In this document: positions 18,001 through 42,548 of the stretch, piece after piece
How the letters are laid out: every line of letters begins with the position of its first letter
Position numbering within the stretch: position 1 is the stretch's first letter
Origin: Haplodiscus bocki
Lineage: Eukaryota
Direction: 5' to 3'
Length of the DNA: 64,000 bases
Assembly: GCA_965655095.1 (NCBI GenBank)
Contig: OZ296656.1
Coordinates: forward strand, 32,240,001-32,304,000
Translations under genes and position numbers: made by a program
Notes under the pieces: generated by a model
The model's database searches: none
Seen by the model: the letters and a program-made list of their open reading frames with translations, nothing else
What the model was told of the DNA's origin: nothing

Positions 18001-18624
18001 TCTACATCCTATAAACAGCTGTCGGCAAAGCCTTTTTCGATGAAATCATTTTATAGTTCTTTGTAGAAACATAACTTTTAACCTGCAGGAAATTCATATT
18101 TAATTGCTTTTGTGCAACTTCAGGCTTTCAAATTTTGAAATCAAACAGTAAAATTCAACAGAATTACGAGCGATACTCTATTCATAAATGGAGCTTTTCG
18201 ACTGAGATCTTGACGCAGCAAAAGCACATGGTAGATTCTCTTAGAAAAAGGGTGGTGTCAAAATCGACAAACATCACTTTTTGCTGATTTATTAGACATT
18301 CTCAGCCAATCTTTCTCCTTATACATGAGTAGTAGTATTAAGGGTTGATTGAGTCGGGGGGAGGGGGTTGAGTGAGTAAACTTTTACGGTCAATTACTCA
18401 ACCCACCCCGAGCCAAAAATTATTAGGTAATCGCGAGCGGAGAGACAATAATGACGTAACCGACAGGTGAATCTGGTTATTTGTAGTGTAGCACAGGAGT
18501 CGTAAGTTAGTTTCAAGTAATTTTGAACGTCGACATCGAGGTGCGACAATGGCGTAACCAATAGAGTTCAAAAGGACAACTCCTTGTCCTTTTTGCTGCT
18601 GCTGTGATGGGTCTTCAATCATTT

Positions 18625-20940
18625 TCAGCACTGTGAGACTAGAAAGGGAAAACTCTGAACAAAGACTGGAATAACTTCTTGCAATCTGAGAAAATTCAGA
18701 GTAGGGAACTTTTTAACTGTTCATAATCGCCGATATAACGAATTTTTTGGTGACAATTCCGAGGAACTGTGAATTATTCTGCAAATTTTGGCACTGTGAA
18801 ACTTGGTTGAAAAATTTTGAAACAGGCGAAAGAATGACAATACTTGTTGAATCTTTGACAATTTGCACGACCGGATCTTAACATGGAGAGCCTAGACTTT
18901 CTGCACTGTGAAATTTTTGCTTACAAACTTCGGAAATAGCAATATTTTTGAAGTTTTCGGCACTTGCCGACTTGATCGAAAAATTTGAAATCAGCAAGGA
19001 GTAGAAAAAAAACTTCAGTTTAAAAGTTTACACGTAGAGAACCTGTTTAATGGTCTTTGAGCTTAACTGATAAATAGAACTTCTCTTTATTATTCCGTGA
19101 AACTGTAAAACAACCGGTACTTTCGGCATACTGAAACTCGAGAGGGAAAATTTAAAAGAAAAATTTTTGAAATAAGTTATTGCATTTGGATGAAATTAAT
19201 GTAGGGAACATTTTTCACACTGTATAATGTTGCAGATAAATCGAACTGTTTATGGCAATTATGAGGAACTGTGAATTGTTCCGACAATTTTGGCACTCTA
19301 AAAATTGATGGAAAGATTGTGAAAGAAGCAGAAGAATTATTAAACCTGTTAAAGTTTTGACAGTTTGAACGTCCGGATATTAATCTGGAGAGTTTAACTT
19401 TGCTGAACAGTGGAATTTCTGCCTGAAAATCTCAGAAATTGTAACTGTTCTGAAATTTTCGGCTTTGTGAGACTTGATAGAAAAGTTTGAAGTCAGCAAG
19501 GAAGAGAAATATTCTTTCTACAATTTGAAAGTTTAAACGTAGGGAACTTGTTTAATTGTCTTTGATAACCCTGATAAATTTAGCTACTTTAATACTTTCC
19601 GAGAAACCGTAACACGTCTGGCATCTTTGGCTTTGTGCAACGTCAAGGCAGAGTAAAAAGCCGGCAGCATAGTGAGAAAACCTATTGCCATTTTCAATTT
19701 TTACGTATAAATACGTTTTACAGCTTTTTTGTCGCTGATAATTTAAATATTAATGGCATTTGTGAGGAATTTAACTTCTCTGATATCTTCAGCACCGTGG
19801 AGCCCATTTGCAACATTTCAACTAGCTGAAAAGTGGACAAACTGTTACTGCTCAAAAGTTTAAACGTAGCAACCTTGTTTCAAGTTTTCATTAATGCCGC
19901 TCATCAGAAACTTCCGTTCTAAATGTTCCAAACTACCACCGTTCTAGAGACTTCGCCATTGTGAGATTCGGAGAAATTATTTAAAGGCGGCAGCAAATTG
20001 AGTAAACCCTTTGCAAAAATATTTTATGGAGAGCACTGTGAAAGTGCCTGTTGTTGGTGAAAAACGGAACTTTTAGTGAAAGCTATGATGAACTGCAATT
20101 TTTCAGATAGTTTTAAAACTGTGAGTGTTGATGGATGAAAAGGATTCAGCAGAAAAATTAAAATCTTGTCGCAAGTTGAAAGTGTTTGAGCATGCAACAT
20201 AAATCATATAGTTTATACTTGTGGATGAGTAGAATCTGTACATTTCAGAGAGACTGTAACCTTTCCAACACTTTCATCACTGTGATACTCAACGGAAAAA
20301 ATAAAGAAAGCCATATTCCGAGAAAACCTTTTAAATTTGAAGCTTTGAACGTTCAGCACTTTATAGAGTGTTTGATAGTGCGTATAACTAGCATCTTTAT
20401 TGGGAAATTCAAGAAGAAATTAAAGTTTCCAACAGTTTCAGCACTGTGCGACTCTTTCGAAAAAATTCGATGAGGCAAAGACTGAAAAACTGTTACAACC
20501 TGAAAGTTTAGAGGGGAAGGTCATAGTTCAAAGAATTTAGCTGTGCTGGTCTTCCAAAACACTGCTGAAAAAGTTATGAAACTCTAAAGTTTCGAAACCT
20601 TCGGCACTATTGGATTTGGTGAGACATTAGAAGGTCAAACGTAAGGAAGTAACCTACTTAATAGCGAGCAATATTGCTGAACACTAAAAACTCTGTGAAC
20701 CAACCAATGAAACTGAAACCTTTCTGGATCTTCCGGCTCCACGAGACTCGATGGAGGTTTATGGAGACCGTAAAGAAAAGAGAACATACCTCCTTGGGAA
20801 AGACTCAACTCTGGGAGTTTGTTTCTTAGTCTGCCTTAACTTCTCTTGAAGAAAAATCTACAGAATGTTGTGAGAAAAAACAACTTTGTCAACATTTTTG
20901 CCACTGTGAGTCTCGTGTGAACGATCTGCAAGTTTGACAA
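18625..20940 (+). repeat. Degenerate ~165-bp tandem array in the left outer arm, mirrored at ~30340-31790
   Basis: A gcactgtgagact-like motif recurs at about 18627, 18790, 18959, 19125, 19292, 19461, 19629, 19791, 19955, 20116, 20276, 20440 and 20604. Confidence 0.7.
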
Positions 20941-21013
20941 GGAGATGCATGTTCATGGGAAAAAATTCAATTTGCTGGATAAGTATTAGGACAAGTACTT
21001 TGCTTACAGAGTT

Positions 21014-24000
21014 TGTTTCCACACCAACAGATGACAAACACCAACCGCGAAATCTGACATGGTTTTCTCAGAATAATCGTCAATAAAACCAAAACAGAAA
21101 GTACTCAGCGTGCTTTCTGGAGAATTTACTTGGTTCTAAGAAAAGAAATTGAGAATCTCGCTTTCAAAATATTCAAATGACTTCATAAACAGAATGATGT
21201 ATGCGCTCCTGAAAGTTTCAGGACTGTGAGACCTGCTCCGAAAAACCTGAGCAAGGACTGATTGTATTCTTTCTTTCTTTGGTTGAAAATATTTTACTTC
21301 GGAAAACTCATTTTGTCGACCAATGTCACGACCTAACAAAGGTTTTCATTCAGAAATGCAAAAAGTTCAGCATTTTTGTCGATCTCTGCACCATGTTACT
21401 TGGCACAGAAACTCCTAGGAGAAAAAAACAAAAAGGTGTAAGTTGACGTTTTTTCTGGATATATATCTTTTTTTTCGTAAAATCCAACTTTTGCACCAGA
21501 GTGATAAATGAAAGAAATTCCACGCAGGAATACGAAATCACTTTTTGCAAAGTTTTGTGCAATGTCACGCCATTTACATTTTTCCAAGCGTGTAGTTGAA
21601 AAAAGCATGAATTTGCCAGGACTGGCTTTATAGACAGATACTTGAGCTGATGTTGATCTGAGCGTTAAAAACAGTAGTCCCTTCATTTCTTGAAGTCACA
21701 CTTCTGGTAGAGTCCTTTTCCGGAATTAGAAACTGTTGGTTCAGAGTAGTCGAAGGTAGATTACAGCAACTCTTATCACCTACTCCCCTCGTGGAACAAC
21801 AAAGGTTAAACTTTTTTTCATGTATTTCTATCAGCATCAGTGAACTTTGGAAAAATTCATTGTTTCCAACAAAAGCTTGGTGAAAAAAAATTCGTAAAAA
21901 AACCTTGTGGGATTGGAGCTAGTGTGTTTTTCTGGTTGTCGACAAAGTTCCCCTGGTACTTTGTTAACATTTAATTTTCTAAAATTTGGGACACTAGGAC
22001 GCAAATGTCGTAAATGTCCTCAGTGAGAATTTATGTATAGGATCCATACAGAAGGCAACTTTACGATCGTAAAAACTTGAGCTTCTGACGAAATGAAAAC
22101 AAAAACATGAACTATTCTGCCCCTAGGAACCTACAGACATAAACGAGAAAACAAGCAATTGCACACGGAGACTGGTTTTTGGAAACTGTTGGAACAGTTG
22201 CAGTCAATGATAGTAGTGATCGATTGATTAATCAGGGAAAAAAGGTTCCCAACTTTTAAAATTGTTAGCGAAAGAGGACATTGTGCTGCTGAGATCACTC
22301 AAAAATCGAGACAAAACATACTTTAGATAAGTTTTTGATTATTCTAATTCATCTAAAAACTGCAAAAGCAAAAATCTGATGGTTTCCACAAACGGCAGCC
22401 CTTTTCCACGATGGAAAGTCATTGGAGTTAAAGCAACTTCCAAAACATATTTCTCGTTAGTCTCAGTTTTTTCCTCGGGAAGTGGTTTTTGTTTTGTATG
22501 TAAACAAGGACAATTCACCTGGAGATAATTGGAGATGGGATTTCTCTGAGAAACGTTCGTTTGACAGGTTGGATTTTTTAAGGTGTATAGAGTGAACAAT
22601 ATTCATGATTGAAGAAATTTTCGAGCTGCAATAAGCTCGAACAAAAGCATAGATTCTCGATCGGAGCAAATTTCCAAGAGACAGGAAAAAAACACTTTGA
22701 TCAGGATTTCTGGCTTGTGAAACCTGTAATATCGAAATGGGTTTTTCATTAGAGAGATTGCTTGCCCTCAACACAAAAATCTCTGTCTTTCGTTTTCCCT
22801 CTCTCAACGTCTCTAAATGTGTTGGCTGAAGATTGCCATGCTAGTAATAACTTTCCGTTCAATTTGAAAACAACTCAATTTGTTTTCCAAGAGCAGCCGA
22901 TCATCAAATGTTTGAGAAACTTAGAACGACTTTTCAGTGTTGGACTACTTCTTTCACAATCGTAGAAATGTACAGAAACTCGGCTCAACTTTTCTAACTG
23001 CAGGCATTTTTTCGAAAAAAAACAGGCAGATAAAGTTTTCAATCCAATACTTTTTGGTGGGACACTTCTGGTTGACAATTTTTTCTTTTTCGAATGTTAT
23101 TTTTCTGAGATTGTTCATTGCACGAAGTTATTTTAATATTGGCCAACCTAAGGCGACATTTGGCAGGTTTTGTTTTATTTAGCCCAGCTAATATACTGTA
23201 GGGAATACTAACATGAACCTCTTTCTTCCTTAATATGAAGAAATCCATAAAAATTCCCTGTGTCTCCAGACTTATCTCAATCCACATTTTAGATTTCGTC
23301 AAAGACTAGCATAATAGCTTTGGAATCTTACTGAAGGTTTTTCACCTACTTTTACTATTCCGCAGCTTTTCACTTTCTCCCTTAATTGTTTCAACATCAG
23401 TTATTGAACTTGCTTTTCGGCACAAAACGAAACTTTCTTGTAACACATCTTTTGCACTTTGGGTGACCGGTTCTCGTTACAAAAAGGGAAAGCCGAAAGA
23501 GCACAGAATTTTTTTGAAGGTTGTGTTTGATTTTTCAGTGGATGTCATTACTGGCGTGTTTTAACCAAAACCTGAATGCAGCAATGTTGGCACCTAAGGG
23601 AAGTGTGGATATCTTGGGAGAAACAGAGATCAGGGTTATGCATACAAGTGTTAGCATTGCTCAGCTATACTTCAAGTTGTCAATGTTCTTTTCGCAGAGC
23701 AACAGCGGTTTTTCAAACTAGCTTGCCAAAATGAGTTTATAAATTTGAAAAAACGATACTGATCTAGTTTTTTGAAAGCAGTGGATTGCTTTTGTTTTAG
23801 TTTTACATTCCTAAATAGGTTTTGAAATGGTTGATCTTTTTCGAAGTGAGTGTGGGTGTACTAATTTGTTATAAAACACCTAAAGAATCATGTTTTTTTG
23901 AGGAGGGTGACTACCAATTCCAAATTCGCCAAAAAAGGCACAACTGCAACAATCAATTTTTTCGCCGAGTTTAGGGGAATAATTTGCTCATTTCATTTTT

Positions 24001-24060
24001 GCTTCAGGCAAAAAAATGAACCATGTGGAAACTTCAGAAAAGGTTTTGAACGAACCTGTG
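21014..24060 (+). repeat. Near-identical inverted arm, left copy (partner ~27290-30334)
   Basis: Only scattered substitutions over ~3 kb; many mirrored spurious ORFs translate identically. Confidence 0.95.
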
Positions 24061-27000
24061 TGATAAGATCTGGACATGACTTAAATTCATTTTGCCGGTT
24101 TATAAATTTGGTTTTTGAAAACAAGAGATGCCGTGTTTGCTCGGAATGATATTTTGTCTCCATTTGTCTGATGATTAATCTTGGTTGATACAGCTAACTT
24201 CAATGGTTCACTGAAAAGGCCACATTAGAGTAACCCCAATTTTTTTGTCCTAATGCTTAAAAAAGAGAAACGAAATTTCCCTAACTAAAGTTACACTCAT
24301 GAGGAAATGTCTAAGTTGCAGAAAATGACCATGTACTTTTGCATCAAACAGAGGGCTACAAAAATCATAATGAAGATTTCCGTCTGGAGGTTTGCCTGTA
24401 GGTTTAAGCTTCATTGAAGACAGTACTCAGTCTATCAATTTTCCCGATGAATTTTCCGGTGCAACCACGTTCCAAAATTTTTATTCATTCGCTCGAATGC
24501 TGATAAAAACGCTGGCACATGCTTGCTTTGTCTATATCCATTTGCAAGTCGACAGCCTCTTTCTTCAGAATTTTCCCTGATCTGTAAACGTTTTTTTGTT
24601 CCGCGGACAAATCCATCTAAGTGCAATCTCCGTTGGCCTCTTGCGGTCCGTTCAATCGAAATGAACTTCTTTTGGTTGGTTTCTCTTATCTTTATATTCC
24701 TTCTCATCGCTGACGCAGGTTTGCTTGTTTCGTTTTGTAATTTATCGCTGACGTGCTTTATTTTCCAAGAATTGAATCTGCCAAAAAAATTTCTTCTTGG
24801 CTACACAGCTTTTATCCCAAATTCCTTCGTTTTGCCTCGTTTGCCTCAATGTCTTCTTTCAAAATCACTAAAGTTTTTTGGACGGAATGCAAGTATTGGA
24901 CACTTACAAATTTGCAAAAGGGAACCGTTTGTTCATCAATTGCGTTTCCTCCAATGCTGCATTTGGCAAAAAAATTTCTGAGAAAATTTTCCGTTCGCTT
25001 TGCAATGTTTTGTTTCTTCTTCGATGTGCGCACAGCTATCCTACAGTAAACTGATCAGGTTTTATGAAGATTAGATTTCAGCACCACCTCTTGGGATTTG
25101 GAGAGCTTGCTATGGAAGTTAAGTCATTTTCGTGCTGAATTCGACAAGAATTCCAAATTCTCAAGCCCATTCCACGGGACGGTGTGTTGTTTTGCGAATC
25201 ATTCCTACCCAATTTTGTGTAGTTCTTGCTTTGTAATCAACTTAGTGCAGCTATTTTGGCAGCAGATACTTTTTTCGCTGCTGGTCAAGTGTCTGGTAGT
25301 GTACACATGAGCTTAATCGCAGTGACTCTCAGAGCAAGAAAAATTCTCATCAAAACTAAGGACAAAAAATTGTCGACAATTTCAAATGACTGCCGTAATC
25401 GAACATTTGTAGTTTCGGTGAAATTTAAAATCATTTAGATTTTTCCCTAAATTCTTTTGTTTTTCAATTATATTCACGTCTAAATGTTCCAGAGCATAAT
25501 ATTAGCCCATTTAAATTGCTCTCTTTCACTATAAAAACTGATTTCAATGGGGTTTGAAGTCAAAAAATTCGTTCCTAAAAGATATTGAGTCCTATGTTTT
25601 AGTCACTACGCCCAGGTAGTATTCAGTTCTGCTACCAAGCTGGAGTCTCCGCAAAATTTTCTGTTGGACGATGATTAGAGATGACATTCAAAATCAGACT
25701 CCCAAGTAAAATTTCACGTCTGGGGCTTCCCTCATTTATCATTTTTCACTGTTCCGAGAAAATTGTTCCTCTAATATTGTGGAACTTTGTGCCAACAAAG
25801 AACTTTAATCTCACTCTAGCTGTTGAATGACTTTTCTGAAAGCAAAAAACTCGAGCCGTAAATACACGTTTTTTTGCAAATTCGAATAATTAGGTTCCAG
25901 TTGGGACTATTGAGTGGGTAAACAAACGTTATCATAGTTCAAACGAAACGCATTTACTTCAGAGCAGTAAGGAAAACAGATAGTAGAACCAAATCCACAG
26001 TTGATCGAAAAGACCTACCCCAATGTGCTTATGTTAACAAAATCTCAAATTAATACAATCTTTAAGTTATTCTGGAAAAATGTGGGGCTCAGTTAGATGT
26101 TAAGGTAATTAAAAAACAAAAGAGTTTCGTGAAAATTCTAAACATTTCTAACTTTTATCGAAACTCCAAGTGATCGATCATCGCGGTCATTTGAACTTCT
26201 GGAAAATTTTTTTCGTCAATAATCTGATGTGCTTTTTCTTAGCTTTGAGAGTCACTCTTGTGTACAGTACGGGAGACTTGAACAGCAGCGGGGAAAGTAT
26301 TCCTTGCCAGATTATCGCCACTGATTTGATTAGCAAGCAAGAAGTACACAAAATGTGGTAGGAACAGTTTGAAGAAAATGAAGCGTGCCTCGCAATTGGT
26401 TTGAAAAAATTTAGTTCTGCTCCAGTTCAACGCGAAAATCACTTCAATTCCATTTCAAGCTCCCAAATCCCAAGAAGCTGTGATAAAAACTAATCTACAC
26501 CAAATCAAATCATTTCACTGCAGGATTGGTGGGTGTGCGCGCATAGAAGAAGAAAACAAAACATTGCCAATTGATTTGGAAACAAATGAAGAAAACTCCG
26601 TGCCGAATGCACCATTGCAGGAATTTCAATTGGTGATGAAACAGTTCCTTTTCACAAATTTGAAAGTTTTCCAAAACTTGCCTTCCATCAAGATGACTTT
26701 AGTGAACTTAAAAGAAGACATAGACACAAACGCGCCAAAATTGGAACGAAAAAACGTTTACAGATTGGGAAAGCTCTGAAAAAAGAGGCTGTCGACTTGC
26801 AAATGGATATAGACAAAGCAAGCATGTGCCAGCGTTTTTATCAGCATTCGAGCAAATGGAAAAAAATTTTGGAATATGGATGCACCGTAAAATTCATCGG
26901 GAAAACTGATAGACTGTGTACTGTCTTCAATGAAGCTTAAAATTACAGGCAAATAACCAGACGGAAATCTTTATTATGATATTTGTAGCCGTCTGTTTGA

Positions 27001-27289
27001 TGCAAATATACATGGTCATTTTCTGCAACACAGACATTTCTTCATGGGTGTGATTTTAGTTAGGGAAAATTCGTTTCTCTTTATCAAGCATTAGGACCAA
27101 AAAAAATTGGGGAAACTCTAAAATGGCCTTTTCAGTGAACCATTGAATTTACTTGCATCACCTTGAATAATGATCAGAGAAATGGAGACAAAGTATCTTT
27201 CCGAGCAAACACGGCATCACCTGTTTTCAAAAACCAACTTTATAATCCGGCAATATGAATGTAGGTCATGTCCAGATCTTACCACACAG

Positions 27290-30200
27290 GTTCGTTCAAA
27301 ACCTTTTCTGAAGTTTCCACATGGTTCATTTTTTTGCCTGAAGCAAAAATGAAATGAGCAAATTATTTCCCTAAACTCGGCGAAAAAATTGATTGTTGCA
27401 GTTGTGCCTTTTTTGGCGAATTTGGAATTGGTAGTCACCCTCCTCAAAAAAACATGATTCTTTAGGTGTTTTATAACAAATTAGTACACCCACACTCACT
27501 TCGAAAAAGATCAACCATTTCAAAACCTATTTAGGAATGTAAAACTAAAACAAAAGCAATCCACTGTTTTCAAAAAACTAGATCAGTATCGTTTTTTCAA
27601 ATTTATAAACTCCATTTTGGCAAGCTAGTTTGAAAAACCGCTGTTGCTCTGCGAAAAGAACATTGACAACTTGAAGTATAGCTGAGCAATGCTAACACTT
27701 GTATGCATAACCCTGATCTCTGTTTCTCCCAAGATATCCACACTTCCCTTAGGTGCCAACATTGCTGCATTCAGGTTTTGGTTAAAACACGCCAGTAATG
27801 ACATCCACTGAAAAATCAAACACAACCTTCAAAAAAATTCTGTGCTCTTTCGGCTTTCCCTTTTTGTAACGAGAACCGGTCACCCAAAGTGCAAAAGATG
27901 TGTTACAAGAAAGTTTCGTTTTGTGCCGAAAAGCAAGTTCAATAACTGATGTTGAAACAATTAAGGGAGAAAGTGAAAAGCTGCGGAATAGTAAAAGTAG
28001 GTGAAAACCCTTCAGTAAGATTCCAAAGCTATTATGCTAGTCTTTGACGAAATCTAAAATGTGGATTGAGATAAGTCTGGAGACACAGGGAATTTTTATG
28101 GATTTCTTCATATTAAGGAAGAAAGAGGTTCATGTTAGTATTTTCTACAGTATATTAGCTGGGCTAAATAAAACAAAACCTGCCAAATGTCGCCTTAGGT
28201 TGGCCAATATTAAAATAACTTCGTGCAATGAACAATCTCAGAAAAATAACATTCGAAAAAGAAAAAATTGTCAACCAGAAGTGTCCCACCAAAAAGTATT
28301 GGATTGAAAACTTTATCTGCCTGTTTTTTTTTCGAAAAAATGCCTGCAGTTAGAAAAGTTGAGCCGAGTTTCTGTACATTTCTACGATTGTGAAAGAAGT
28401 AGTCCAACACTGAAAAGTCGTTCTAAGTTTCTCGAACATTTGATGATCGGCTGCTCTTGGAAAACAAATTGAGTTGTTCTCAAATTGAACGGAAAGTTAT
28501 TACTAGCATGGCAATCTTCAGCCAACACATTTAGAGACGTTGAGAGAGGGAAAACGAAAGACAGAGATTTTTGTGTTGAGGGCAAGCAATCTCTCTACAT
28601 GAAAAACCCATTTCGATATTACAGGTTTCACAAGCCAGAAATCCTGATCAAAGTGTTTTTTTCCTGTCTCTTGGAAATTTGCTCCGATCGAGAATCTATG
28701 CTTTTGTTCGAGCTTATTGCAGCTCGAAAATTTCTTCAATCATGAATATTGTTCACTCTATACACCTTAAAAAATCCAACCTGTCAAACGAACGTTTCTA
28801 AGAGAAATCCCATCTCCAATTATCTCCAGGTGAATTGTCTTTGTTTACATACAAAACAACAACCACTTCCCGAGGAAAACACTGAGACTAACGAGAAAAA
28901 TGGTTTGGAAGTTGCTTTAACTCCAATGACTTTCCATCGTGGAAAAGGGCTGCCGTTTGTGGAAACCACCAGATTTTTGCTACTGCAGTTTTTAGATGAA
29001 TTAGAATAATCAAAAATTTATCTAAAGTATATTTGGTCTCAATTTTTGAGTGATCTCAGCAGCACAATGTCCTCTTTCGCTAACAATTTTAAAAGTTGGG
29101 AACCTTTTTTCCCTGATTAATCAATCGAACACTACTATCATTGACTGCAACTGTTCCAACAGTTTCCAAAAACCAGTCTCCGTGTGCAATTGTTTGTTTT
29201 CTCGTTTATGTCTGTAGGTTCCTAGGGGCAGAATAGTTCATGTTTTTGTTTTCATTTCGTCAGAAGCTCAAGTTTTTACGATCGTAAAGTTGCCTTCTGT
29301 ATGGATCCTATACATAAATTCTCACTGAGGACATTTACGACATTTGCGTCCTAGTGTCCCAAATTTTAGAAAATTAAATGTTAACAAAGTACCAGGGGAA
29401 CTTTGTCGACAACCAGAAAAACACACTAGCTCCAATCCCACAAGGTTTTTTTACGAATTTTTTTTCACCAAGCTTTTGTTGGAAACAATGAATTTTTCCA
29501 AAGTTCACTGATGCTGATAGAAATACATGAAAAAAAGTTTAACCTTTGTTGTTCCACGAGGGGAGTAGGTGATAAGAGTTGCTGTAATCTACCTTCGACT
29601 ACTCTGAACCAACAGTTTCTAATTCCGGAAAAGGACTCTACCAGAAGTGTGACTTCAAGAAATGAAGGGACTACTGTTTTTAACGCTCAGATCAACATCA
29701 GCTCAAGTATCTGTCTATAAAGCCAGTCCTGGCAAATTCATGCTTTTTTCAACTACACGCTTGGAAAAATGTAAATGGCGTGACATTGCACAAAACTTTG
29801 CAAAAAGTGATTTCGTATTCCTGCGTGGAATTTCTTTCATTTATCACTCTGGTGCAAAAGTTGGATTTTACGAAAAAAAAGATATATATCCAGAAAAAAC
29901 GTCAACTTACACCTTTTTGTTTTTTTCTCCTAGGAGTTTCTGTGCCAAGTAACATGGTGCAGAGATCGACAAAAATGCTGAACTTTTTGCATTTCTGAAT
30001 GAAAACCTTTGTTAGGTCGTGACATTGGTCGACAAAATGAGTTTTCCGAAGTAAAATATTTTCAACCAAAGAAAGAAAGAATACAATCAGTCCTTGCTCA
30101 GGTCTTTCGGAGCAGGTCTCACAGTCCTGAAACTTTCAGGAGCGCATACATCATTCTGTTTCTGAAATCATTTGAATATTTTGAAAGCGGGATTCTCAAT

Positions 30201-30334
30201 TTCTTTTCTTAGAACCAAGTAAATTCTCCAGAAAGCACGCTGAGTACTTTCTGTTTTGGTTTTATTGACGATTATTCCGAGAAAACCATGTCAGATTTCG
30301 TGGTTGGTGTTTGTCATCTGTTGGTGTGGAAACA
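27290..30334 (-). repeat. Near-identical inverted arm, right copy
   Basis: Reverse complement of 21014-24060. Confidence 0.95.
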
Positions 30335-33300
30335 GAAATTTTTACAGTTTCATTGATTTTCAGCAGTTTTGCCCAAGGCCAGCAGTAATAAGCTCTCTGG
30401 ATTACGACCTTTCCGTCGAAACTTGCAGGTTGTAACAGTTTTTCAGTTTTTGCCTCTTCGAACTTTCTCAAACGATTCGCACAGCGCTGAAAATGCTGGA
30501 AAGTTTACATGTTCTTGAAGTTTTTATTAAAGATGCTAGATATAAACACTATCCAACATTGTATAAAGTGCTGTTTGTGCAAACTTTCAGTTTTCAAATA
30601 GTTTTATCAGAATATGGTGTCCTTTATTTCCCTCCACTGAACCTCAGAGTGCCGAAAGTGCTGGAATTGTTACAGTCTCCCTGAAAGGTACAAATTTTAG
30701 TCATCCACAAGAATGAACTACATGATTCAAGGTGCAAGCTCGAACAATTTCACTTTGTGACAAATTTTAATGTTTTTTGCCGAATCCATTTCATCCATCG
30801 ATTCTCACAGTTTTAAAACTGTCTGAAAAATTGCAGTTCCTCATGGTTTTCACTAAAAGTTCCGTTTATTGCCAATAATTGGCACTTTGAAAAATTTTTC
30901 GAACAAGAATTTCAAATTACAATGTGTGTTTTAAATTTGTTTTCGTTTTTATTGTTCTCCATCAAGTCGAACAGTAGTGAAAATTATGGTTTTAAAGATT
31001 TCTAAAGCTAATCTCCGAGGAGCAGCTTCACCAGCTTATGAAACAAGATCGCCACATTTGAATTTTTAGGTGGTAACACATTTCCGTTTTTCAACATGTT
31101 GAAAGTTTTCAAACGAACCTCAAAGCGCCAAAAATGTGAGAAACTTGAAACAACTCACAACTGCCGTTGAAGGTTCTACTCATTAGCAAAAAAATGCTGT
31201 GAAACGTCTCTATACGTGAAAATTTGTAACTGTATTATAAATTCTCCTTTTGTTGCTGGCTTTGTACTTTCCGTTCAAGTTGCACAGTGCCAAAAATAAC
31301 GGACGTGTAACAGTTTTTGGAAAAAATTTTTTTAAAGAAGTTCTCTTTATCAGGAATATCAAAGACTATTAAGCAAGTTACCCATCTTCAATTTCTCAAT
31401 TTCTAATTAGAGTTTTTCTCTTCTTGCTTAATTTACTGTGTTGAAAACAACACAATTGTTACACTACGTTCGATTTGTCAGCAGAATCCAATGTTCAGCA
31501 ATACTAAGCTCTCAAACTTAGGATAGGTACGTGCAAACTGTCAAAACTTCAAAAAATATTTTCGTTCTTTCGCCTGCTTCAAAGTCTTACAATCAAGTTT
31601 CAAAGTGCCGAATTTGGCAGATTAATTCCCAGCTCCTCAGAATTGCCACCAAAAAAATCGATAATTCGGCATTTATGATTAGTTAAAAAAATTCCCTACT
31701 CTGAATTTTTCAGAATACAAGAGCTTATGCCAGTTTATGTTCATTCAGAGTTTTCCCATTCCAGTCTCACAGTGCCGAAAATGATTGAACACCCATCATA
31801 TCAGCTGCAGCAAAAAGGACAAGGAATTTTCCATGAGTTAAATTTTCAGCGATAAAAAACCTGCGATGATCTTTCGGAACGGTTTAATGGCTTAAGAAAT
31901 TTGAAGACAAAGGGTTCCGGTCTGACTTAAAAACAGGTCTGGGAATTTTCCGGCTTTTGTCGGGTTTCAATGATGTCAAGAGATTTCCCTGGAGAGTGAG
32001 TTGCTTCAATTTGGCTTTTTTTTTCATTTCGTTTTGTCCTTGTTGGTCGGGAATATCTTGTGGTAACTCCATATACGGAAACGATTCTGTAATTAAACTC
32101 CATTGGTGACGCCATTGTCGCATCTCGATGTCGACATTCAGATTCGCTTGAAAGTAACTTACGACTCCTGTGCTGCAATGCAAATAACCAGACTCACCTG
32201 TCGGTTGCGTCATTGTCGTATCTCCGCTCGCGATTACCCCATAGTGTTTGGCTCGGGTGGGTTGAGTAATTGATCGTGAATGGTTACTCACTCAACCACC
32301 CGACTAAGTCGACCCATACTATTAGTAATTATATTGGACAAACTTTTCCATACAACTTTCTGCGATTAAGAAGTCGCCAATTCCAGCCCTGCTGGAAAAA
32401 AACTCTTAAAAATCGGCAGAAAAACAAATTTATATTCGAATAATATCAATAAATATTGCACATTTCGGCAGCTGGGCTTTTGTGGTTTCGGATTCAAGGA
32501 GCAAAAGGGAAGCAAACATTGTCACCTCAAAATTATATCCAAAAAGATGGCTGCCAATTGAGACCTTGATCGAAAAAATCCGGCCGGCATGTAGAGGGAT
32601 TTTAGTTTCAACGTAGAGAAAAGTCTTTCAAAATTGCGTTCCTTCGAAATTTGAGCCTATCAGCGTTCTGATGCAATAGCGAAACTGCAGTTACTTATAT
32701 CGAATAACCTGTTGTTAATAGTGTTGTCGAATAAATTCTGGTTGGAAGGATTAGGGTTTGATCTTTTCCGAAAAGAACGAGCTTGTTTATCGGGAAAATC
32801 TCAAAGTATATGACCATTTTGACATTTTCGGCCTATCAGGGTTCCAATGCAAGAAAAGAACCCAAGGTCTTCTTCTAAAAGCGAATTCTGCAAAAATAAA
32901 ACTGACCAAGAGTAAAGAAAGCTTTTCAGAATTTTAGAGAAATTTGAGTTTGAGTACCATGAAACATTCAAAACTAATAACTAACTCCAGATCCTTCTTC
33001 TGATAGAGAACAAACAAAATCATGTTCGAGCCATTGATTTTTTCAAGGGGCTATAAGTCAAGAAACAAATCCAAGGTACAGTTTGTCAAAGAACATTCTT
33101 GTGTTCTCTTATGAACTCTTATGTAATTTTTTAATAATAAATCCGAGTTCCAATAATTTTTACCGGCGTCAAAAAAATTCTCGGTTAAATGTGAAACGCT
33201 GGGGTAAATATTCAATATACTCGAGGATTTCATTGAAATTTGAAAATTTTCTGCTAAAACTCTTCAAGAATGGACAGCCAAAGTTTCTGCTGAAATAGAG

Positions 33301-33936: not shown

Positions 33937-36900
33937 TATCGCGTGTACAGGAATTGTAGTTAAACTACGCATCAAATATATCACGTAATATTCGCCTCAA
34001 CTAATATTGCTAGGCGGCATGTGCGGCCATGTGTCTACGTCATCGTGTAAGAAAGTCGCAGAAGCTCACACTCTTTTCAGCTTCCTAAAAATGCCAATCT
34101 AAACCGCACGGAGGAAGCTGCGTAAGTTGTACTAGCAAAAACCTGGTGAGCAAAAGAAGAATAAAAAAGAGACGAAGTAATTGGTGAATTTACGGAAATG
34201 GCAGTCAGTCTAATTAATGTGAATGTACACGAGATAAGATTATGTTTCGGAAAAGTGAGAGTATTAGAATCAGGATTTGAGCAATCCAATATATTAAAAA
34301 TTAGCGGAAAACTCAAATTTCCAAAGCATCATTTCTTTTCCATAAAATTTTTTCTACATAAAAAGGCAAGCTGCAATTCTGCATAATCTCCCCTGTTGCA
34401 AAACCATGTCCCGAATCAATTGAGGCTCGAGATTGAAATTGCTTTGGTTCCCGTTATGTCTGAGCCTGAAATATATTCTTTCCCGATAGCTGGGCGTCCT
34501 GGGTGTGACAACAACTTGGGAGTCTCTTAACGAGTTGATGAGGAGGCTCTGGAAGATTGGGCTAACGTCACATGGTTTTTGACTGGCGGCCCTGGGTTCT
34601 CGGTTGAGGAGCCAGAATCTGCGGTTTCCTTCTGTTTTTGTACAGAAAAAACTTAGAAAAGCGAATTCTTTGCTGCACCACTATGGAAAATGACCTGTTG
34701 AAAGCTCTACTAACAGGCTTCAGCAAATTGAAAAATTACCAAAAAAAACAGCGGGCGGAACGATTTAATAGTTGGCCTCCATCTACATTTCGTGTGCAGC
34801 TCGAGGGAAATTCGAAAACTGGGGGATTCTTGGAAGTAGAGTAGGTCCATGGTTTACTTCAAAAGTGGTGTGAAAGTAGTCCACACCACAAGTGCATTCT
34901 GTTGGAGTGTTTGCTCCACCAAATAGTAAGATATTGGAATTGCAAAATAACACTCTCTCATAAAAGCTTACAATTTAAATTTGAAAATCATAACAGTTCA
35001 CAATTTAATGATACAAAGCATAAAAATTAAATTCAGCCAAAGTTGGAATTATTTAATTGAATGAGAACAGACATTTTTAGTAAATTTACAAAACTTTTCC
35101 ATGGAAAATGGAACATTTACCAAAATTAAGGACTAATTTGAAGTAACGTTTTATTAGCTTTCTGGCTAGGGCGAATAATAACTAATAACGTTCGTTTTTT
35201 CTAGCTCGCGCTTTGCTTTTTGCTATATAGAACTTCCAGTTTTATTTGATGATTCAGTCATTTCAATTTAAGGTAAGACTTCAGTATCATGCCTTAGAAG
35301 CAGTCAACCTAATGAAATCTCGCAAATCCCCATTAGCCGCGAACTATAAGTTGAATTTTGTGCAAATACCGAAGGGGATATTAAATTTTTTTAGACTCTG
35401 GAAAAAAGGATCAAACGCAGTCAAACAGGTCAGACATCTTAGATGATCTTTTCGTCAACTGTGAGGCACTGACGAGGATTTTACATGCATTTTCGTTTTA
35501 GGATTATATAGCTCCTTCAGCCTTATATACACAAGTCAGTACTTGCATTACCACATCGACTGGTTGAAACTTCTTAACTATCCCTACAATTACAAACTGT
35601 GAAGAAATCTCTGGATTCCTTGGACGGGTTTAAATATTTTTGGTGCTGTCTAAAACTCAGCTAAAACTCACTGTGAGCGGCAAACTTGTGTTTTTCTCCT
35701 AGTTCCTTTTTAACTTGAACGCAGCAGGTCTTCTGCCATTCATCAAAAGAGAATATATAAAAAACGAGTAGTGAGAATAATTCTACTAGATCAAGCAAGG
35801 TAATGACTAACGTATACCAAAGTGGAGCGGAGGATTTCTTTATGTTTTCAGCGGGTTGAAGCACCTTCCGGTTATCTTCAATTGGCTAATCGGTCAGTGG
35901 AGGATAGTTTTTTTGTTGGGTTGACAGCGGGTGAAGCCCCAACGAGTAGTGCAACCAAGAAGATCCTGATGATAAATGTCAGCCCACAATACGGAAAATT
36001 TGTAGACAAAATTCGATGAGTTGAAATTGAATTTCAGCGAAGACACACTTTGGACCTGTCTTAAAAGATTTCCATGAGTTGTAGTTGAATTTTGGCTTCG
36101 ACACAATGTTGAATTGTCTTAGAGTAAATTCGATGAGTTGTAATTGAATTTCAGCTGAGGCACAACTTGGAATTGTTTTAGAATTACATCCCTGAGTTGT
36201 AGTTGAAGTTCGGCCTAGACTTGACCTTGTCTTGGAGAAACTTCGAAAATAACTGTTTGGATTTAGGCTAACCCACAACTCGGAAATATTTCAGGATAAT
36301 TTCGAAGAGTAGTAACTGATATTCGGCTAAAACACAACTTCTTGGATTTGTTTCAGAAGATTTTCAACGAGTTGTAATTGAATTTGGGCCAAGATGCGGT
36401 TTGCAAATGTCTTGCAAACATTCTGAGGTGAAGCAAATTGAGAAAAGTGATTTTAGCTTGCTTGATAAAAGTGAGAATATTCTAGAAATTTAGTAAAGGT
36501 TGAGTGTAGCAGGCTTTTACTTCAGCTAATTAAGCAAGTGAATGAGGGCGAGCTCCTCGAAATTATGACTGAGCACTGGTTTTTTATGCCCCGTTTGGTC
36601 ACGTGACCACTTAGTGTGACATAGCATGTTGGTCATGAAGCCAATAGGAAAAACCCAGTAGGCTGGGGAAATTATAATTTTGTATCTGTAAATAAAAATC
36701 TTGAAAGTTTGAAACTTCACCCGAATAAATTGAGCTGTCTATCAATTTTATCTTGCTGCCGTAATGACTTCAATTTTTACTAGCCATCTCTATTGTATAC
36801 GTTCTGTCTTCAATTTTAATCTATGTTGCTCGTCAGAGTTGGGAGGTGTATTTGTCTTTGCCCTGGATTTTTGCAACGTCCCTTCGAGTCTGTGTGGTAA

Positions 36901-37083
36901 GTAAATTTCACTTCCTTCATAATCTCGTAAATTTCGCAAGTCCAGTTCGATTAGAAAATGTACAAACTGCACTAATCACTTCAAGTATTAATCTGAGGAG
37001 TGAAGTTAGTGTTAACTTTTCGTTAAAATGAAGTCCAAAAGTTTCACGTTTTGTATGATTTGACAGTTAAAGGTATCGCGATA
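33937..37083 (-). repeat. 3' LTR (3147 bp), termini TATCGCG...CGCGATA
   Basis: Colinear with 40420-42548 apart from an ~850-bp extra block (34890-35740) and the copy number of an internal repeat. Confidence 0.75.
35960..36420 (+). repeat. ~59-bp tandem repeat inside the LTR (~7 copies; ~4 copies at 41600-41850)
   Basis: atgagttgta(a/g)ttgaatttc-like motif at about 36015, 36073, 36132, 36191, 36304 and 36366. Confidence 0.7.
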
Positions 37084-37099
37084 ACTCACCCAACTGAAA

Positions 37100-39100
37100 C
37101 GAAGAAGATGTTGAATACAGGGTTCTAGGGGAAGAGACGAAAGGACTACTGGGAGATATAAAATGCAAATTTTTCAGATATCTCAAAGTTTTGATTGAGG
37201 GAGAGCAATAACAGTTTGCAGGATAACCATCAGTCACTGGGCAGGCAACGATGTTTTTTCGAGAGTCGGTTTGTCTTGGCGGCTTTGCCAAATGATAAAG
37301 TTGCATGAGTTGAACTCAGGTTTTAGGCCATGTTGAAGTCGAAATATGAACCGTGCTCAGCTAATCTTTCTCGTTTTGGAAGCAAAATACTCTCTGCGAT
37401 GTTGGTGACTAGGGACTAAAAATGCAGTTTCAACGAGGTGTTCACACTGACTGGGACATGATGAAAGGGGGCGACCAATGGTTGGAGAAGAAAAGTGGGC
37501 GGAAGTTGTTATTGATCTTCATTACTGTTGGCTGCGAAGGATCGAAAGTTTTCAGTTGAAGGGTTTTTAACTGTGGAAGCTCAATCAAGGGGCTCCGTAG
37601 TTGAAGTGATTAGAGGGCTTGCGTGATCGTCAGGCGAAACTGGGCTAAGAAGAAATACTGCAGGAGAAGTCGGAGGTGAAAGATATACTACTTCCGGGTT
37701 AGTGGTTACAGCAAGGCTACAGAGAGTCAATGATCGTAAATCTGCGTCTAGGTTTGAAAAAATAGAAAAGATGTCGACCTTGCAAGAGCGATCTTCGATG
37801 ATCTCAGCCATGGAGTCGGGTTAATCTGGCATGGGTACTTCCAATGGAATTTTATCGCACCTGGGCAAAAACAATTTGTCATCCAGTTGCAACCAAGATG
37901 CAAATTGTAAGTTTTGTGGAACCTAACCTACATCTGGAACCAATTTGTGAGTAACCTCGGTCGACAGCATGGAGATCTAAGACCATAGTTAGCTGCGCCA
38001 CTAGATTCACATAGGAAAAGATCTCTCTATTTTCTCATAGGAATAGTTTTTGAAATTGCCTTAATATCAAACCGGCGCTCCTTGGGCAGTAAGACAGAGT
38101 AGGAGCCAGGGTTCTAAAGTAGTAGCTCCAGTACTGTGCAAACGACGTTGACATTTTTTCTAAGAGATGCTGGCGCGAAACGGGTATCTTCAGAAAACTG
38201 CCATTCATTCTAGCTTCTTCCGTAAAAACTGTAAATATGATAAAATTTATCGGCCTATTTTGAGCCGGTTGTCACGGTTAATTGAGAGTAAAATAATCAA
38301 AGAAGCTTCAAGCCAGATATAATTTTGCATATAAATGAAATAATGACTGGTAAAAGAATTTTGGGCTCTTTAATTGTTATCTGGACATTGGAACAATACG
38401 TTTTTCGAGGAGAAAAGAATCCATGAATCCATGTAAATTTAACATGAGGGTGGCCAAGAGCTCAATTTCTTGCATCATGGAAAAATTCCAGATTTGTAGG
38501 CATGATTTTTTTGTGCCCAATCAGATAGTAGAAGTGAGTTGACGTTGATAAGTGACAACTTGAGAAATATCCCAAGAAATTTTCCCATAATCCAGAAGAT
38601 CGTCCAAGTTTTAGTTTTCCCGTTTTTCCATTTCTTTGCAGACCTTCATGGTCTCAAAGAGGTTGGCAAACTCTTCTTTTCAGGATGTTATGGAGTTATG
38701 ATTCAAGTATTGCAGCGAAGAGTTCCTCAATCGACCCGATCCAGACTTTGGAGAATGTTTTCGTCGGAATTTGAAAAGCTGGATAGAGGATTGTAAAAGC
38801 TGTTCTTGTTTATGTGCTCCCATTGAAGCATTTTTGGTTTCCACTTGCAGCGAAGAGTTACTTTTGATTGGTTTTGTGGTGTGACCATGGCATAAATTTC
38901 GATCATCTCAAAGTTCGCGTAAATGATTCGAAGTAAACAACTGCAAAGATAACTTCTGTTGGCAGGGCTTTGTATCCAGGCATAAGATTGTAGGTTCGGA
39001 TAAGATGATTAGGTGGAGAATTTAACTACAGCAAATAGGAAAGTGCCATCAAGTAACATCAGGAGATATAAAAGTTTAAAAAAAGGCAATAAAAAATGAG
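37100..39100 (-). pseudogene. Decayed ORF-X of unknown function downstream of gag
   Basis: Protein-like segments across frames (TFLFAVVKF..YPNLQSYAWIQ; SSLQYL..KEEFANLF; NFSMMQEIEL; NPGSYSVL; FASWLQLDDKLFLP); no RT, RNaseH or IN motifs seen. Confidence 0.45.
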
Positions 39101-39134
39101 ATCAAGAGATAGAGAATGCTCTTTCATAGGAGTC

Positions 39135-40304
39135 AGTAGCCCAATGGAAGCGGGTTAAATAGTTCATCGTCAGACTTGCTGGTTGAGGTGAATTGTGCCC
39201 TATTAAAACTCATTCCGTTAATCCTTGAGAAATTTCTTGGTTCAGGAGGGTTACACGTGTCAGTTTCATGTTGCCAAGTGGCTTCCTGGTTAGATAGACG
39301 TCCGTTCATTCAGCTTTTTCTATAATGAAGGTCAAGAAAATGGTTCATGATACGACCGTTCTGCGGTCTATGGTTGAAGTTGCTAGTTGAATAGTTTTGT
39401 ATGGGAGTGACATTCCTTTTTGAAGACATATCAATTCGTGCTTTTCTCACTTCTTCATCTGGCATCTTTTTGCGACATCAATTTAGTATAAGTCCATTGT
39501 CATCGCAGCAATTACAGAATCGGTTAGTTTTTTTGTCTTTCTCGTTAATCGAAATGAAATTTTAGGAAAATTACTGCTACGGCATTGACGTGATGTTCTT
39601 TCAACACTGATCGAAGGTTTTTTAACTCCTGTCCAATTGTAGCCAACTCTGTCCTCGTTTGTTCTTCTAACAAATAGAAAAGTCGAGGAAAAATCTAGTT
39701 CCAAACCCTTTGGAAATATTTGGCAGCAGACATTGTTCCAAATAGCGTGTGGACGCTCCATTAGATACTCGTGAAATTTCCGTTGTAGATATCTAGGTCT
39801 AAATCTTCGCAAATTGTTGTCCATTTACCGTCGTCGACTTTGTCTTCCTTGTGCTGCTCGTTCTGCATTTTGTTGTCCATATGTGATACAGTTGATATCG
39901 TCGGGCCAACCCTTATCTTCCGTTCATTTAATGCTACGGAGAAAATCCCGATTTTCTTTTCCATCTCTTCTATTACAGTGCTCAAGTTCCAATCGATTGC
40001 GGAATTTGGGTTGTAGTTCTTCAAATCTAGTAATAAAGTCGGTTCGGATAGCTTCCCATGAGGTAACAGCTTCCACAAGGCTTCCATAGCAATCGGCAGC
40101 TGGAACTCTAAATGAAAAAGAAAAGAGTGATTTCTTGCAAAAATTGTAGTTGGCCAATTGTTCGGCGTTAGCGGGGGACATCTCCAACGGCAAGGGTATT
40201 TTTCTTCCAGTTAATTGTACAATGGATTCAGCATCCTGATCAGGGTCAGTGTCAGAGAACTTTTCCACGGCCAGGTCGGGATACGCAAGATGAGCTGCAG
40301 CCAA
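39135..40304 (-). pseudogene. Gypsy-type gag (capsid-like region + Cys/His knuckle), frameshifted
   Basis: AAAHLAYPDLAVEKFSDTDPDQDAES..SWEAIRTDFITRF..RPRYLQRK.HEYLMERP.A.WN..RFCNCCDDNG..CRKK. Confidence 0.75.
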
Positions 40305-40398
40305 TGTGATATATTTTTTACAAAACATCAACTATACAAAACTAACTAGGGCACAAACTGCACAAATTACAGAAAGAATCAATGTTGCTCACAAGTGT

Positions 40399-40416
40399 GC
40401 CGCACTGCTCGCACCA
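40399..40416 (-). promoter_or_regulatory. tRNA primer-binding site
   Basis: TGGTGCGAGCAGTGCGG begins 3 nt inside the LTR boundary, ~100 bp upstream of gag. Confidence 0.65.
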
Positions 40417-40419
40417 GTT

Positions 40420-42548
40420 GGTCGAGCGTACAGTGGGTGAAGTTAAACTACCAATCAGATATAGTCACTATTGTTCATCCTAAATAAATGCTGTTTGGCG
40501 GAGTGTGAGGCCTTGCATCTGTATTACCGTGTAGGAAAGTCTAAGAAGCTCTCATTGTTTTAAGTTTCCTAAATTTGCCCTGCTAAACGAAGCTGCGTAA
40601 GTTCTACTAGCGGGGACTTGGTAAACAAAGAAAGAAGACAAAAGAAGATGAATTGCTTGGTGAATATGCGGAAAAGGCAGTCGGTATAAAAAATGTAAAT
40701 ATGCACCAGATAAGATGAATTATCGGAAGAGTGAGATTAATAGAATCAAAATTTGAGCAATTTAAATTCTTAAAATCTAGTAGAAAACTCAAAGTTCCAA
40801 AGCCTCCGTTTTCTTCAAAATTTATTCTTTTTAAAAAGGCAAACCGCTTTCTACACAATCTCCTCTGTTGCAAGACCCGGTTCCGACTCAAATGAGGATC
40901 GGGACTGAAGTTCTTTCAGTTCTCGATATGCGTGAACTTGAATTGTCTCCTCCCCTTTAGCTGGGTATCCTGGGTCTGAAAACTTCTTGGGACTCTTTTA
41001 CCGCGTTGATGTGGAGGCTCTGGAGGATTGAGCTAACTTCACGAAAATTTATAAATGACCGTCTTGGGTTTTTGATTGAAGATCCCGAAAATTCATGAAC
41101 TTTGTGCAATTTTCACATAATTATGTACGGTAATATTTGGGAAAAAAACGAATTCTACGCTACATCACTTTGAAAAAATAGAAGTTAAAAGCTCTAAAAC
41201 CCGGCTTCTGCAAGTTGACAAAGTACCAAGGAACTCAGTGTGTGAAACGATTTGATAGTTGGCCTCCTGCGACACTTTGAGTCCAGCTTCAGGAACTTGT
41301 GGAATCCGGAAGATTCTTGGCCAGTAGATTAGGCCCTGTGTCCACTTCGTCGTCCACATCAAAAGAGAATATATAATAAATGAGTAGTGAGAATAATTCT
41401 ACTAGATCAAGCAAGGTAATGACTAACGTATGCCAAAGTGGAGCGGAGGATTTCTTTATGTTTTCAGCGGGTTGAAGCACCTTCCGGTTATCTTCAATTG
41501 GCTAATCGGTCAGTGGAGGATAGTTTTTTTTGTTGGGTTGACAGCGGGTGAAGCCCTAACGAGTAGTGCAACCAGGATGATCCTGATGTTAAATGTCAGC
41601 ACACAATACGGAAATATCGTGGAAAAAATTCGATGAGTTTTAATTGAATTTCACTTTGGACCTGTCTTAAATTATTTTCATGAGTTGTAGTTGAATTTCG
41701 GCTACGAAAAAAAGTGGAATTGTTTTGAACAATTTTGAAGAGCAGTAACTGAATTTCGGCTAAGACACATCTTGCAATTGTCTCAGAATATTTTCGAACA
41801 GAAGTGATTGAATTTTGGCTGAGACTCAATTTGCAAAAGGCTTGGAAAAAATTTGAGGTTTGGGCAGTTGAGAAAAAAGAAATTGCTTTGCTTCAAAAAG
41901 TGAGATTATTCAGGAACTTAAGTGAAGGCTGAGCGTAGAAGAGTTTCGCTTCGGGTAATCAAGCGAGTGAATGAGAGCGAGCTCCTCAAAATTCTGACTG
42001 AGCACTGATTGCTTATGCCTCGTTTGGTCACGTGACCACTTCATGTGACCTGGCATATTGGTCATGTAGCCAAAAGGAAAAACCCACTAGGTTGCGGGAA
42101 TTAGAATTTTGTTTCTTTAAAAAAAATGTTGGAAGTTTGAAACTTTAACCGAATAAATCGAGCTCTCTATCAATTTTATCTTGCTGCCGTAATGACGGTC
42201 ACTATTTACCAGTCAACTTTCTTGTATCCATTCTGTCGTCAATTTTGTACTTTATTGCACGTCAGACTTGGAATCGTCTTTGTCTTTGCCCTGGGTTGTT
42301 GCAGTTGCAACGTCCCTTCCAGTCTGCGTGGTAAGTAAAATTCAACTCCTTCATAATCTCCTAATTTTCGCAAGTCAATTTCGAATAAAAAATGAACAAA
42401 CTGCACTAATCGCTTCAGGTATTTATCTGAAGAATGTTATTTCGCGAGTTTTTCTTTTAACGTCAAAAATTCATGAAGTTAGTTTTAACTTTTCGTTAAA
42501 ATGAAGTCCATAGTTTTGTAAGGTTTGAGCGTTAGCTCTGACACGATA
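40420..42548 (-). repeat. 5' LTR (~2130 bp)
   Basis: Diverged direct repeat of 33937-37083; outer end cacgata (TATCGTG on the minus strand). Confidence 0.75.

Follow-up and report, generated by a model that had tools for sequence, protein, structure and literature searches.

A long palindrome in the Haplodiscus bocki genome: probable copy of an extinct family of helper-dependent snap-back Polinton satellites

The window analysed here is a 64,000-nucleotide stretch of the Haplodiscus bocki genome (GenBank assembly GCA_965655095.1, contig OZ296656.1, positions 32,240,001 to 32,304,000 of the forward strand), and positions given without a locus name refer to it. At 18328-32329 it holds an element made of two long inverted arms, located on contig 9 of the 1.5-Gb genome. 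We find that this element belongs to a family with Polinton/Maverick-type ends and with target-site duplications (TSDs) of 6 bp, that the founder of the family was a near-perfect hairpin, and that each arm holds a decayed TRAF-like open reading frame (ORF). The explanation that we favor, at a probability of roughly two in three, makes the element one dead copy within an extinct family of helper-dependent snap-back Polinton satellites. An earlier note on this DNA, made from the sequence alone, had described a single fossil molecule and had named no gene in it; instead, the palindromic unit spread as a gene-carrying family that is found at at least 90 loci.

A dispersed family of long palindromes

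Self-comparison of the window revealed one inverted duplication, at 18328-32329, with no undetermined nucleotide (N) inside it. The earlier note had placed the palindrome at 18328..32326, and the inverted duplication stands while its right end, aligned with the rest of the family, moves to 32329. Identity between the arms changes stepwise, from 85% over 18328-18571, 82% over 18574-18927 and 73% over 19121-20588 to 99.1% over 21014-24055, which includes a run of 906 bp free of differences, and then to 89.7% over 24056-24602 and 75% over 24830-25486. Three stretches occur in a single arm; as 19-27 of 28 other loci match them, they are family sequence that the opposite arm has lost. Contigs from four public runs (two samples of one study, the assembly's own sample perhaps among them) extend over the left arm and the center, with a merged contig that begins exactly at 21014, and show the right-arm letters where the arms differ; one contig crosses the center of the palindrome, with an opposite-strand joint at 24602. 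The palindrome is a real structure.

Searches with the terminal 261 bp gave 222 candidates genome-wide, the best 40 of which scored 75-83%, and a 34-nt subterminal motif had 108 matches where its control had none. A census with the TRAF region, in which 150 of 190 candidates were scored, yielded 135 matches at at least 90 loci, arranged as 24 divergent (head-to-head) pairs, 2 convergent pairs, 3 same-strand pairs and 61 single matches. Among 100 ends listed, 15 pairs face inward and none outward; nine of these pairs span 12.2-16.8 kb and six span 25-53 kb, and a family TRAF match lies 2.4-9.9 kb inward of 40 ends. We fetched 28 other loci from the search matches (8 end pairs, 10 ends without a listed arm match and 10 arm matches). 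Inverted arms of the same sequence are present at 23 of them, and the other five are one-armed, interrupted or satellite-expanded. The other palindromic copies that the earlier note had proposed to look for thus exist, a clean 6-bp TSD being found in 2 of 10 tested copies.

In the middle arm the copies are 67% identical to one another (62-78%, 22 rows), and their tree is star-like. No sister copies more than 84% identical outside the terminus, and no young member of the family, were found among the copies compared. The family is an old burst of a dead, many-copy element. Two loci show local expansion: at C10:40.11-40.13M the subterminal repeat of the family has grown into a satellite of more than 15 kb, and at another locus a 162-bp unit is expanded within the right arm.

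The founder was a near-perfect hairpin

The ~600-bp spacer at 25490-26090, taken in the earlier note for the original loop, belongs to the right arm as its innermost part; the mirror of this segment on the left has been deleted. It is matched at 17 other loci, at three of them in both orientations. In two copies, C10:62.0M and C2:50.0M, the palindrome continues without a break across a loop of 12-16 nt at a homologous site, and both halves of the C10:62.0M center map onto the window from 25520/25526 outward. Self-complementarity with such a minimal loop was seen at 2 of 29 loci, other copies being deleted over the tip, and TRAF sequence occurs on both strands in 11 of 26 TRAF-bearing loci. The shared position of this loop in the two copies, with both mirror halves still present beside it, shows that the family began as a near-perfect hairpin; the proposed fold-back architecture therefore holds for the family, with a founder loop of only ~12-16 nt. 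The ancestral tip maps to ~25520, the window copy has lost ~600 bp of its left arm, and one side of the tip is now missing from most copies. From the window arms plus the lost pieces, we estimate founder arms of roughly 8 kb and a total of ~16 kb. A central flip-flop was considered and dropped, as orientation is uninformative in a symmetric element.

Younger palindromes that carry a polymerase

A younger, multi-copy palindrome of 19.3 kb lies at C4:88366120-88385434. Its 9.0-kb arms are 98.8% identical, its 6-bp TSD is perfect and each arm carries an open pPolB polymerase gene of 1208 aa; no integrase or capsid ORF was seen in it, and its center holds a 200-N gap. Compared with an 18.8-kb full Polinton of the same genome, its length is similar, its terminal inverted repeat (TIR) is 84% identical and its pPolB 94-96% identical, so that, for TIR plus pPolB, its arm is collinear with one end of a possible helper genome. 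Its accessory cassette has 1110 candidates, with eight head-to-head pairs among 45 rows. Four further pairs were examined: one forms a palindrome of 98.7% whose center is free of gaps, one combines AGT ends with a perfect TSD, and the ends of two are of other types. Palindromes with a total length like that of Polintons recur in the genome with different ends. The same accessory cassette is also found in palindromes at C3:4.99M and C6:26.5M, which have the ends CAATAATAACC and apparent 4-bp duplications; one of these two elements encodes a different pPolB.

Polinton-type ends and target-site duplications

The left end of the window element reads AGTAGTAGT and carries the Polinton/Maverick end motif, 5'-(AGT)2 or (AG)3. 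Across the family, the ends consist of AGT triplets followed by a G-run and a subterminal hairpin, whose fold has a z score of -2.46 (3 of 200 shuffles were equally good). The flanking hexamers that the earlier note had read as a TSD, agtagt or atgagt versus attagt, are themselves terminal AGT-type triplets; the true flanks match at four of six positions (Table 1). We compared flanks in 10 two-ended copies, excluding those with an overwritten flank or an unanchored end. The best hexamer match averaged 4.1/6 against 3.2 for swapped ends (permutation p=0.0046), with two copies perfect and two at 5/6, which gives the family a 6-bp TSD. According to the available text of PMC8097293, (AGT)2 together with a 6-bp TSD is the commonest signature of vertebrate Mavericks, whose TIRs measure 46-1447 bp and whose sizes range from 12.7 to 24.6 kb. 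The H. bocki genome is rich in Polintons, with 10958 pPolB candidates, and the two full Polintons examined in it have AGT ends and perfect 6-bp TSDs.

Neither Pfam searches of read-through frames nor tblastn with local Polinton ORFs matched pPolB, integrase, ATPase, protease or capsid in the window arm, and Pfam found no match in the middle arm of three copies. The terminal motif, the TSD and the lack of core genes, all proposed in the earlier note, are thus supported at the level of the family, which, with at least 90 independent insertions, TSDs, inward-facing end pairs and no enzymes of its own, has several features of a non-autonomous Polinton derivative. As no parent was found, dependence on Polintons rests on the ends and the TSD.

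One locus, C3:91.9M, was considered as a parent, being the only one with core genes inside, namely ATPase, integrase and capsid relics between family repeats. It was rejected as a nested insertion, because the relic has an AGT end of its own, belongs to a family of 20508 candidates, and is followed by family TRAF and tip sequence. That family is a very abundant Polinton capsid family in its own right. In the C3:91.9M copy, capsid and protease genes reach the end with no detectable pPolB, which makes it a possible polymerase-less partner of the palindromes that carry only pPolB. Academ elements, considered on account of TAGT-like ends, were dropped once 6-bp duplications appeared.

Origin of the palindrome

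Protein-primed strand displacement is the replication model for Polintons/Mavericks (PMC8097293). In the explanation that we favor, such copying of a Polinton-ended molecule would have turned back ~8 kb from one end, and the fold-back would have left a hairpin with a 12-16-nt loop. Copying the hairpin would then have produced a linear palindrome of ~16 kb with a valid origin and integration end on each side, which, in an old burst, the polymerase and integrase of a helper Polinton would have amplified and inserted, with duplications of 6 bp, at at least 90 sites. The spreading unit would have carried in each arm an intact TRAF-like ORF taken from a host-type gene. What followed is shown by the copies: neutral decay, one-sided deletions at the unstable tip and repeated arm-to-arm conversion in the chromosome. 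We infer the snap-back template switch, the part of a helper in amplifying and inserting the unit, and packaging as the cause of the Polinton-like length.

Several observations weigh against this explanation. The search for a full-length Polinton that shares the family terminus, which the earlier note had proposed, found none, the arm has no DNA or protein similarity to six Polinton regions around intact pPolB genes, and, in what is a weak test, none of the 100 listed termini lies within 25 kb of the 90 top pPolB places among the 10958 candidates. TSD scores are 2 or lower in two of the 10 tested copies, and the window copy reaches only 4/6. The fetched loci were a non-random choice from search matches, and two young pPolB palindromes have an assembly gap at their center. 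Finally, at least two copies (C2:24.1M and C5:69.5M) have secondary loop-free centers elsewhere, and hairpin tips can therefore also form later, in the chromosome.

These secondary centers speak for the main rival, which we consider unlikely: that the palindromic founder of the same Polinton-ended family arose in a chromosome by TIR extension of the Foldback/Galileo kind, with an integrated Polinton whose interior was replaced, by repair that copied from one end, up to the point where the arms joined, and was then mobilized in trans. Conversion that overruns the element boundary is indeed seen in family copies (see below), and the excerpts of PMC3573991 describe extension of Galileo TIRs by recombination and report that Polinton inverted repeats expand too. 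However, Galileo TIRs reach only ~1.25 kb in those excerpts, whereas the arms here meet at a loop of 12-16 nt common to two distant copies, and TIR extension sits poorly with the recurrence of Polinton-length palindromes with different ends.

It is still less probable that the family is a non-autonomous foldback element of another DNA-transposon superfamily with 6-bp duplications, its AGT ends being coincidental. The failure to find a Polinton gene or parent fits such an origin, but the ends and TSD together are the signature named above as commonest in Mavericks, three Polinton-type ends in the genome start with AGT and two of them continue with a G-run, and Pfam found no trace of a transposase, including the P type, in the arm.

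A TRAF-like cargo gene

Each arm holds a decayed TRAF-like ORF. A MATH domain at ~24055-24363 on the minus strand matches Pfam PF21355 at E 1.6e-5, below the cut-off; the same profile reaches E 4e-18 in the C10:62.0M copy, and PF21355 and PF22486 are both above the cut-off in a family copy and in an intact paralogue. The layout is that of a coiled coil, judged from sequence only, followed by MATH/TRAF-C. With the intact paralogue as a query, tblastn detected the ORF in the left arm at E 9e-17 and in the right arm (26830-27293) at E 4e-15. Across 21 aligned rows, one minus frame is free of shared stops over 23900-25160, compared with 14-34 in the other five frames over the alignment; the founder thus had an intact, intronless ORF of at least 420 codons. 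Every one of the 21 rows now contains stops (2-19 each), and divergence is equal at the three codon positions: after the founder, the ORF decayed neutrally. In the 3.2-kb middle arm, shared stops occur in all six frames across 22 copies, and a leucine-rich-repeat gene suspected there by eye was discarded, with no Pfam match and no stop-free frame.

RING and zinc-finger domains, as in TRAF2-6, had no Pfam match in the window frames, in a 227-aa upstream piece or in the 397-aa paralogue ORF, and a 153-aa family piece searched for among longer proteins was not found. The nearest intact relatives are two single-copy ORFs of 397 and 392 aa, with the family's own broken copies ranking next, and a homologue of ~50% identity in the acoel Convolutriloba macropyga is annotated as TRAF6-A-like. 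These similarities suggest, without proving, that the ORF was captured from a host gene. That a RING-less TRAF-like protein served as a decoy is speculation.

The two single-copy intact ORFs, at C5:50.4M and C5:9.06M, form the likely donor clade, and the first adjoins an ORF that resembles, by eye, a BED-finger hAT transposase. The genome also contains a retroelement of long terminal repeat (LTR) type, ~18.6 kb in length. Besides gag, pol and a Monjiviricetes-like fusion glycoprotein it bears a TRAF-like ORF that is intact and intronless, the TRAF domain of which has 2967 candidates genome-wide. That both the palindrome family and this giant, env-bearing LTR element carry a TRAF-like gene suggests that an immune adaptor was captured repeatedly.

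Arm-to-arm gene conversion after insertion

Identity between the arms of one copy averages 0.89-0.95 in six of seven alignment windows, compared with 0.67-0.72 between copies (0.81 at the terminus), and arms can be as much as 99% identical even though copies are ~67% identical. Over 21400-22200, 15 of 16 arm pairs exceed the highest between-copy value; in the innermost alignment window, with three pairs only, one does. In a tree of the 24 rows with at least 700 bp aligned, all nine arm pairs form cherries at 100/100. The earlier note had held that outer arms closer to different genomic copies would reveal two insertions; the arms pair with each other instead, and independent insertions are thereby excluded.

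Both arms share 35 of the 36 departures from the common state that the window copy shows in its youngest stratum (over 23900-24055 only); for the middle stratum the figure is 84 of 139, and for the inner one, where each arm has decayed independently by ~17%, it is 19 of 171. Given this independent decay, the overwriting that produced the 99% tract came very late. The inverted match extends beyond the terminus and takes in ~0.4-1.2 kb of the flank in 4 of the 23 palindromic copies; at C4:22.8M it is 98.9% over 2.4 kb, and a TRAF fragment from the right junction has also been copied into the left arm. As flanking DNA is included, conversion took place in the chromosome, after insertion. Taken together, the present similarity of the arms is the product of later, repeated arm-to-arm gene conversion, in three strata (99%, 90% and ~74%).

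That the arms were instead homogenized during replication, each copy being a young insertion from its own diverged lineage with no conversion in place, is very improbable: it too predicts that arm pairs cluster by element, but it is at odds with the three strata within a single copy, the worn TSDs, the lack of close sister copies outside the terminus, the equal divergence at the three codon positions and the conversion tracts in which flanking DNA is copied. An assembly artefact, or two insertions that landed head to head independently, can be all but dismissed, since, even though no contig or read among the four public runs spans the whole element and depth drops toward the center in three runs, the same architecture recurs at many loci, the arm differences are confirmed in contigs of two samples and a contig crosses the center.

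Arm or TIR identity can therefore grossly underestimate the age of an insertion, as with arms 99% alike in a copy that is ~17% decayed per arm, and dozens of palindromes of the same age allow arm-to-arm gene conversion to be measured.

Features of the window

Table 1. Positions of the parts of the palindromic element and its flanks in the window
Feature	Position	Strand	Remark
Left target-site hexamer TACATG	18322..18327	+	Matches right hexamer at 4/6 positions; p=0.0046 for the TSD across the family
Left terminus: AGT triplets, G-run, subterminal hairpin (~18349-18416)	18328..18571	+	The family's most conserved part
Subterminal repeat region: two units of ~495 bp, 72% alike	18574..20620	+	Unhomogenized relative to right arm (73-82%)
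Left arm middle, conserved family sequence	20630..23880	.	Lacks an ancestral ORF in all frames
Youngest arm-to-arm conversion tract, left copy	21014..24055	.	99.1% to 27290-30334
Decayed intronless TRAF-like ORF (coiled coil + MATH)	23900..25160	-	Reads outward from the center
Older conversion stratum	24056..24602	.	89.7% to 26743-27289
Inner left arm, essentially unconverted	24830..25486	.	75% to 26090-26740; stops at one-sided deletion beside tip
Apparent spacer: innermost segment of right arm, from ancestral hairpin tip	25520..26090	+	
Second decayed TRAF-like ORF	26415..27445	+	Limits mirrored from left copy
Youngest conversion tract, right copy	27290..30334	.	99.1% to 21014-24055
Right subterminal region, with right terminus of four AGT triplets in degenerate form	30341..32329	-	
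Right target-site hexamer TATATT	32330..32335	+	4/6 match to left hexamer

Elsewhere in the window, 2373-3094 has a small inverted repeat (97 bp, 85%) as typical of a miniature element, and 33939-42534 is a decayed relic of the same group as the TRAF-carrying LTR element, with gag at 39391-40304 (minus strand, 51% identity) and diverged direct repeats that contain a 59-bp tandem unit.

Implications and comparison with known systems

Polinton replication and virion formation have so far been inferred from gene content. A hairpin founder of Polinton length is what strand displacement with template switching and size-limited packaging would predict. As a tentative generalization, which we hold to be somewhat less likely true than false, Polintons might regularly spawn heritable snap-back satellites, near-perfect hairpins kept at helper length (~16 kb here, and 19.3 kb beside an 18.8-kb relative in the younger family) by packaging in the helper capsid, some retaining the polymerase in both arms and some, as in the present family, carrying two RING-less TRAF copies that damped host immune signaling. 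If so, such satellites would amount to defective-interfering particles that became fixed in the germ line of an animal, and would speak indirectly for a virion stage; the young polymerase-bearing palindromes make the hairpin model testable. Non-autonomous elements with TIRs are already known, and so, separately, are foldback elements, defective viral genomes and conversion in palindromes. A multi-copy Polinton derivative that is a hairpin over its whole length was not found in the literature searched, subscription journals, Repbase and bioRxiv supplements lying outside the coverage.

Like the Polintons/Mavericks described in the available text of PMC8097293, the family has a 5'-(AGT)2 end motif, a 6-bp TSD, a size within 13-25 kb and accessory gene cargo. 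Unlike them, it has no pPolB, integrase, ATPase, protease or capsid genes, and its inverted repeat of ~7-8 kb, which makes the whole element one hairpin, contrasts with the 46-1447 bp of vertebrate Mavericks in that source. With Galileo and other foldback elements, as the excerpts of PMC3573991 and PMC2775673 present them, it shares long, internally repetitive inverted arms, non-autonomous copies, instability and, for Galileo, TIR change by recombination and conversion. Galileo, however, belongs to the P-element superfamily and has a 7-bp TSD and TIRs of up to ~1.25 kb, and these excerpts describe no duplicated cargo gene in it. The 6-bp TSD of our family and the lack of a transposase match separate it from the Galileo/Foldback group.

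Palindromic mini-replicons are known from the protein-primed phage phi29 and from linear plasmids. The family probably resembles these, and snap-back or copy-back defective viral genomes, in the duplication of one end by a hairpin, in having two ends usable as origins and in its dependence on a helper. These known molecules are transient extrachromosomal or RNA molecules, whereas the palindrome family is integrated, heritable and multi-copy. In sex-chromosome palindromes, the arms are kept alike by intrachromosomal gene conversion, with stepwise strata. The same arm-to-arm conversion and stepwise strata are seen here but, unlike those palindromes, the family offers dozens of dispersed, dead mobile-element palindromes of one age, which serve as replicate natural experiments.

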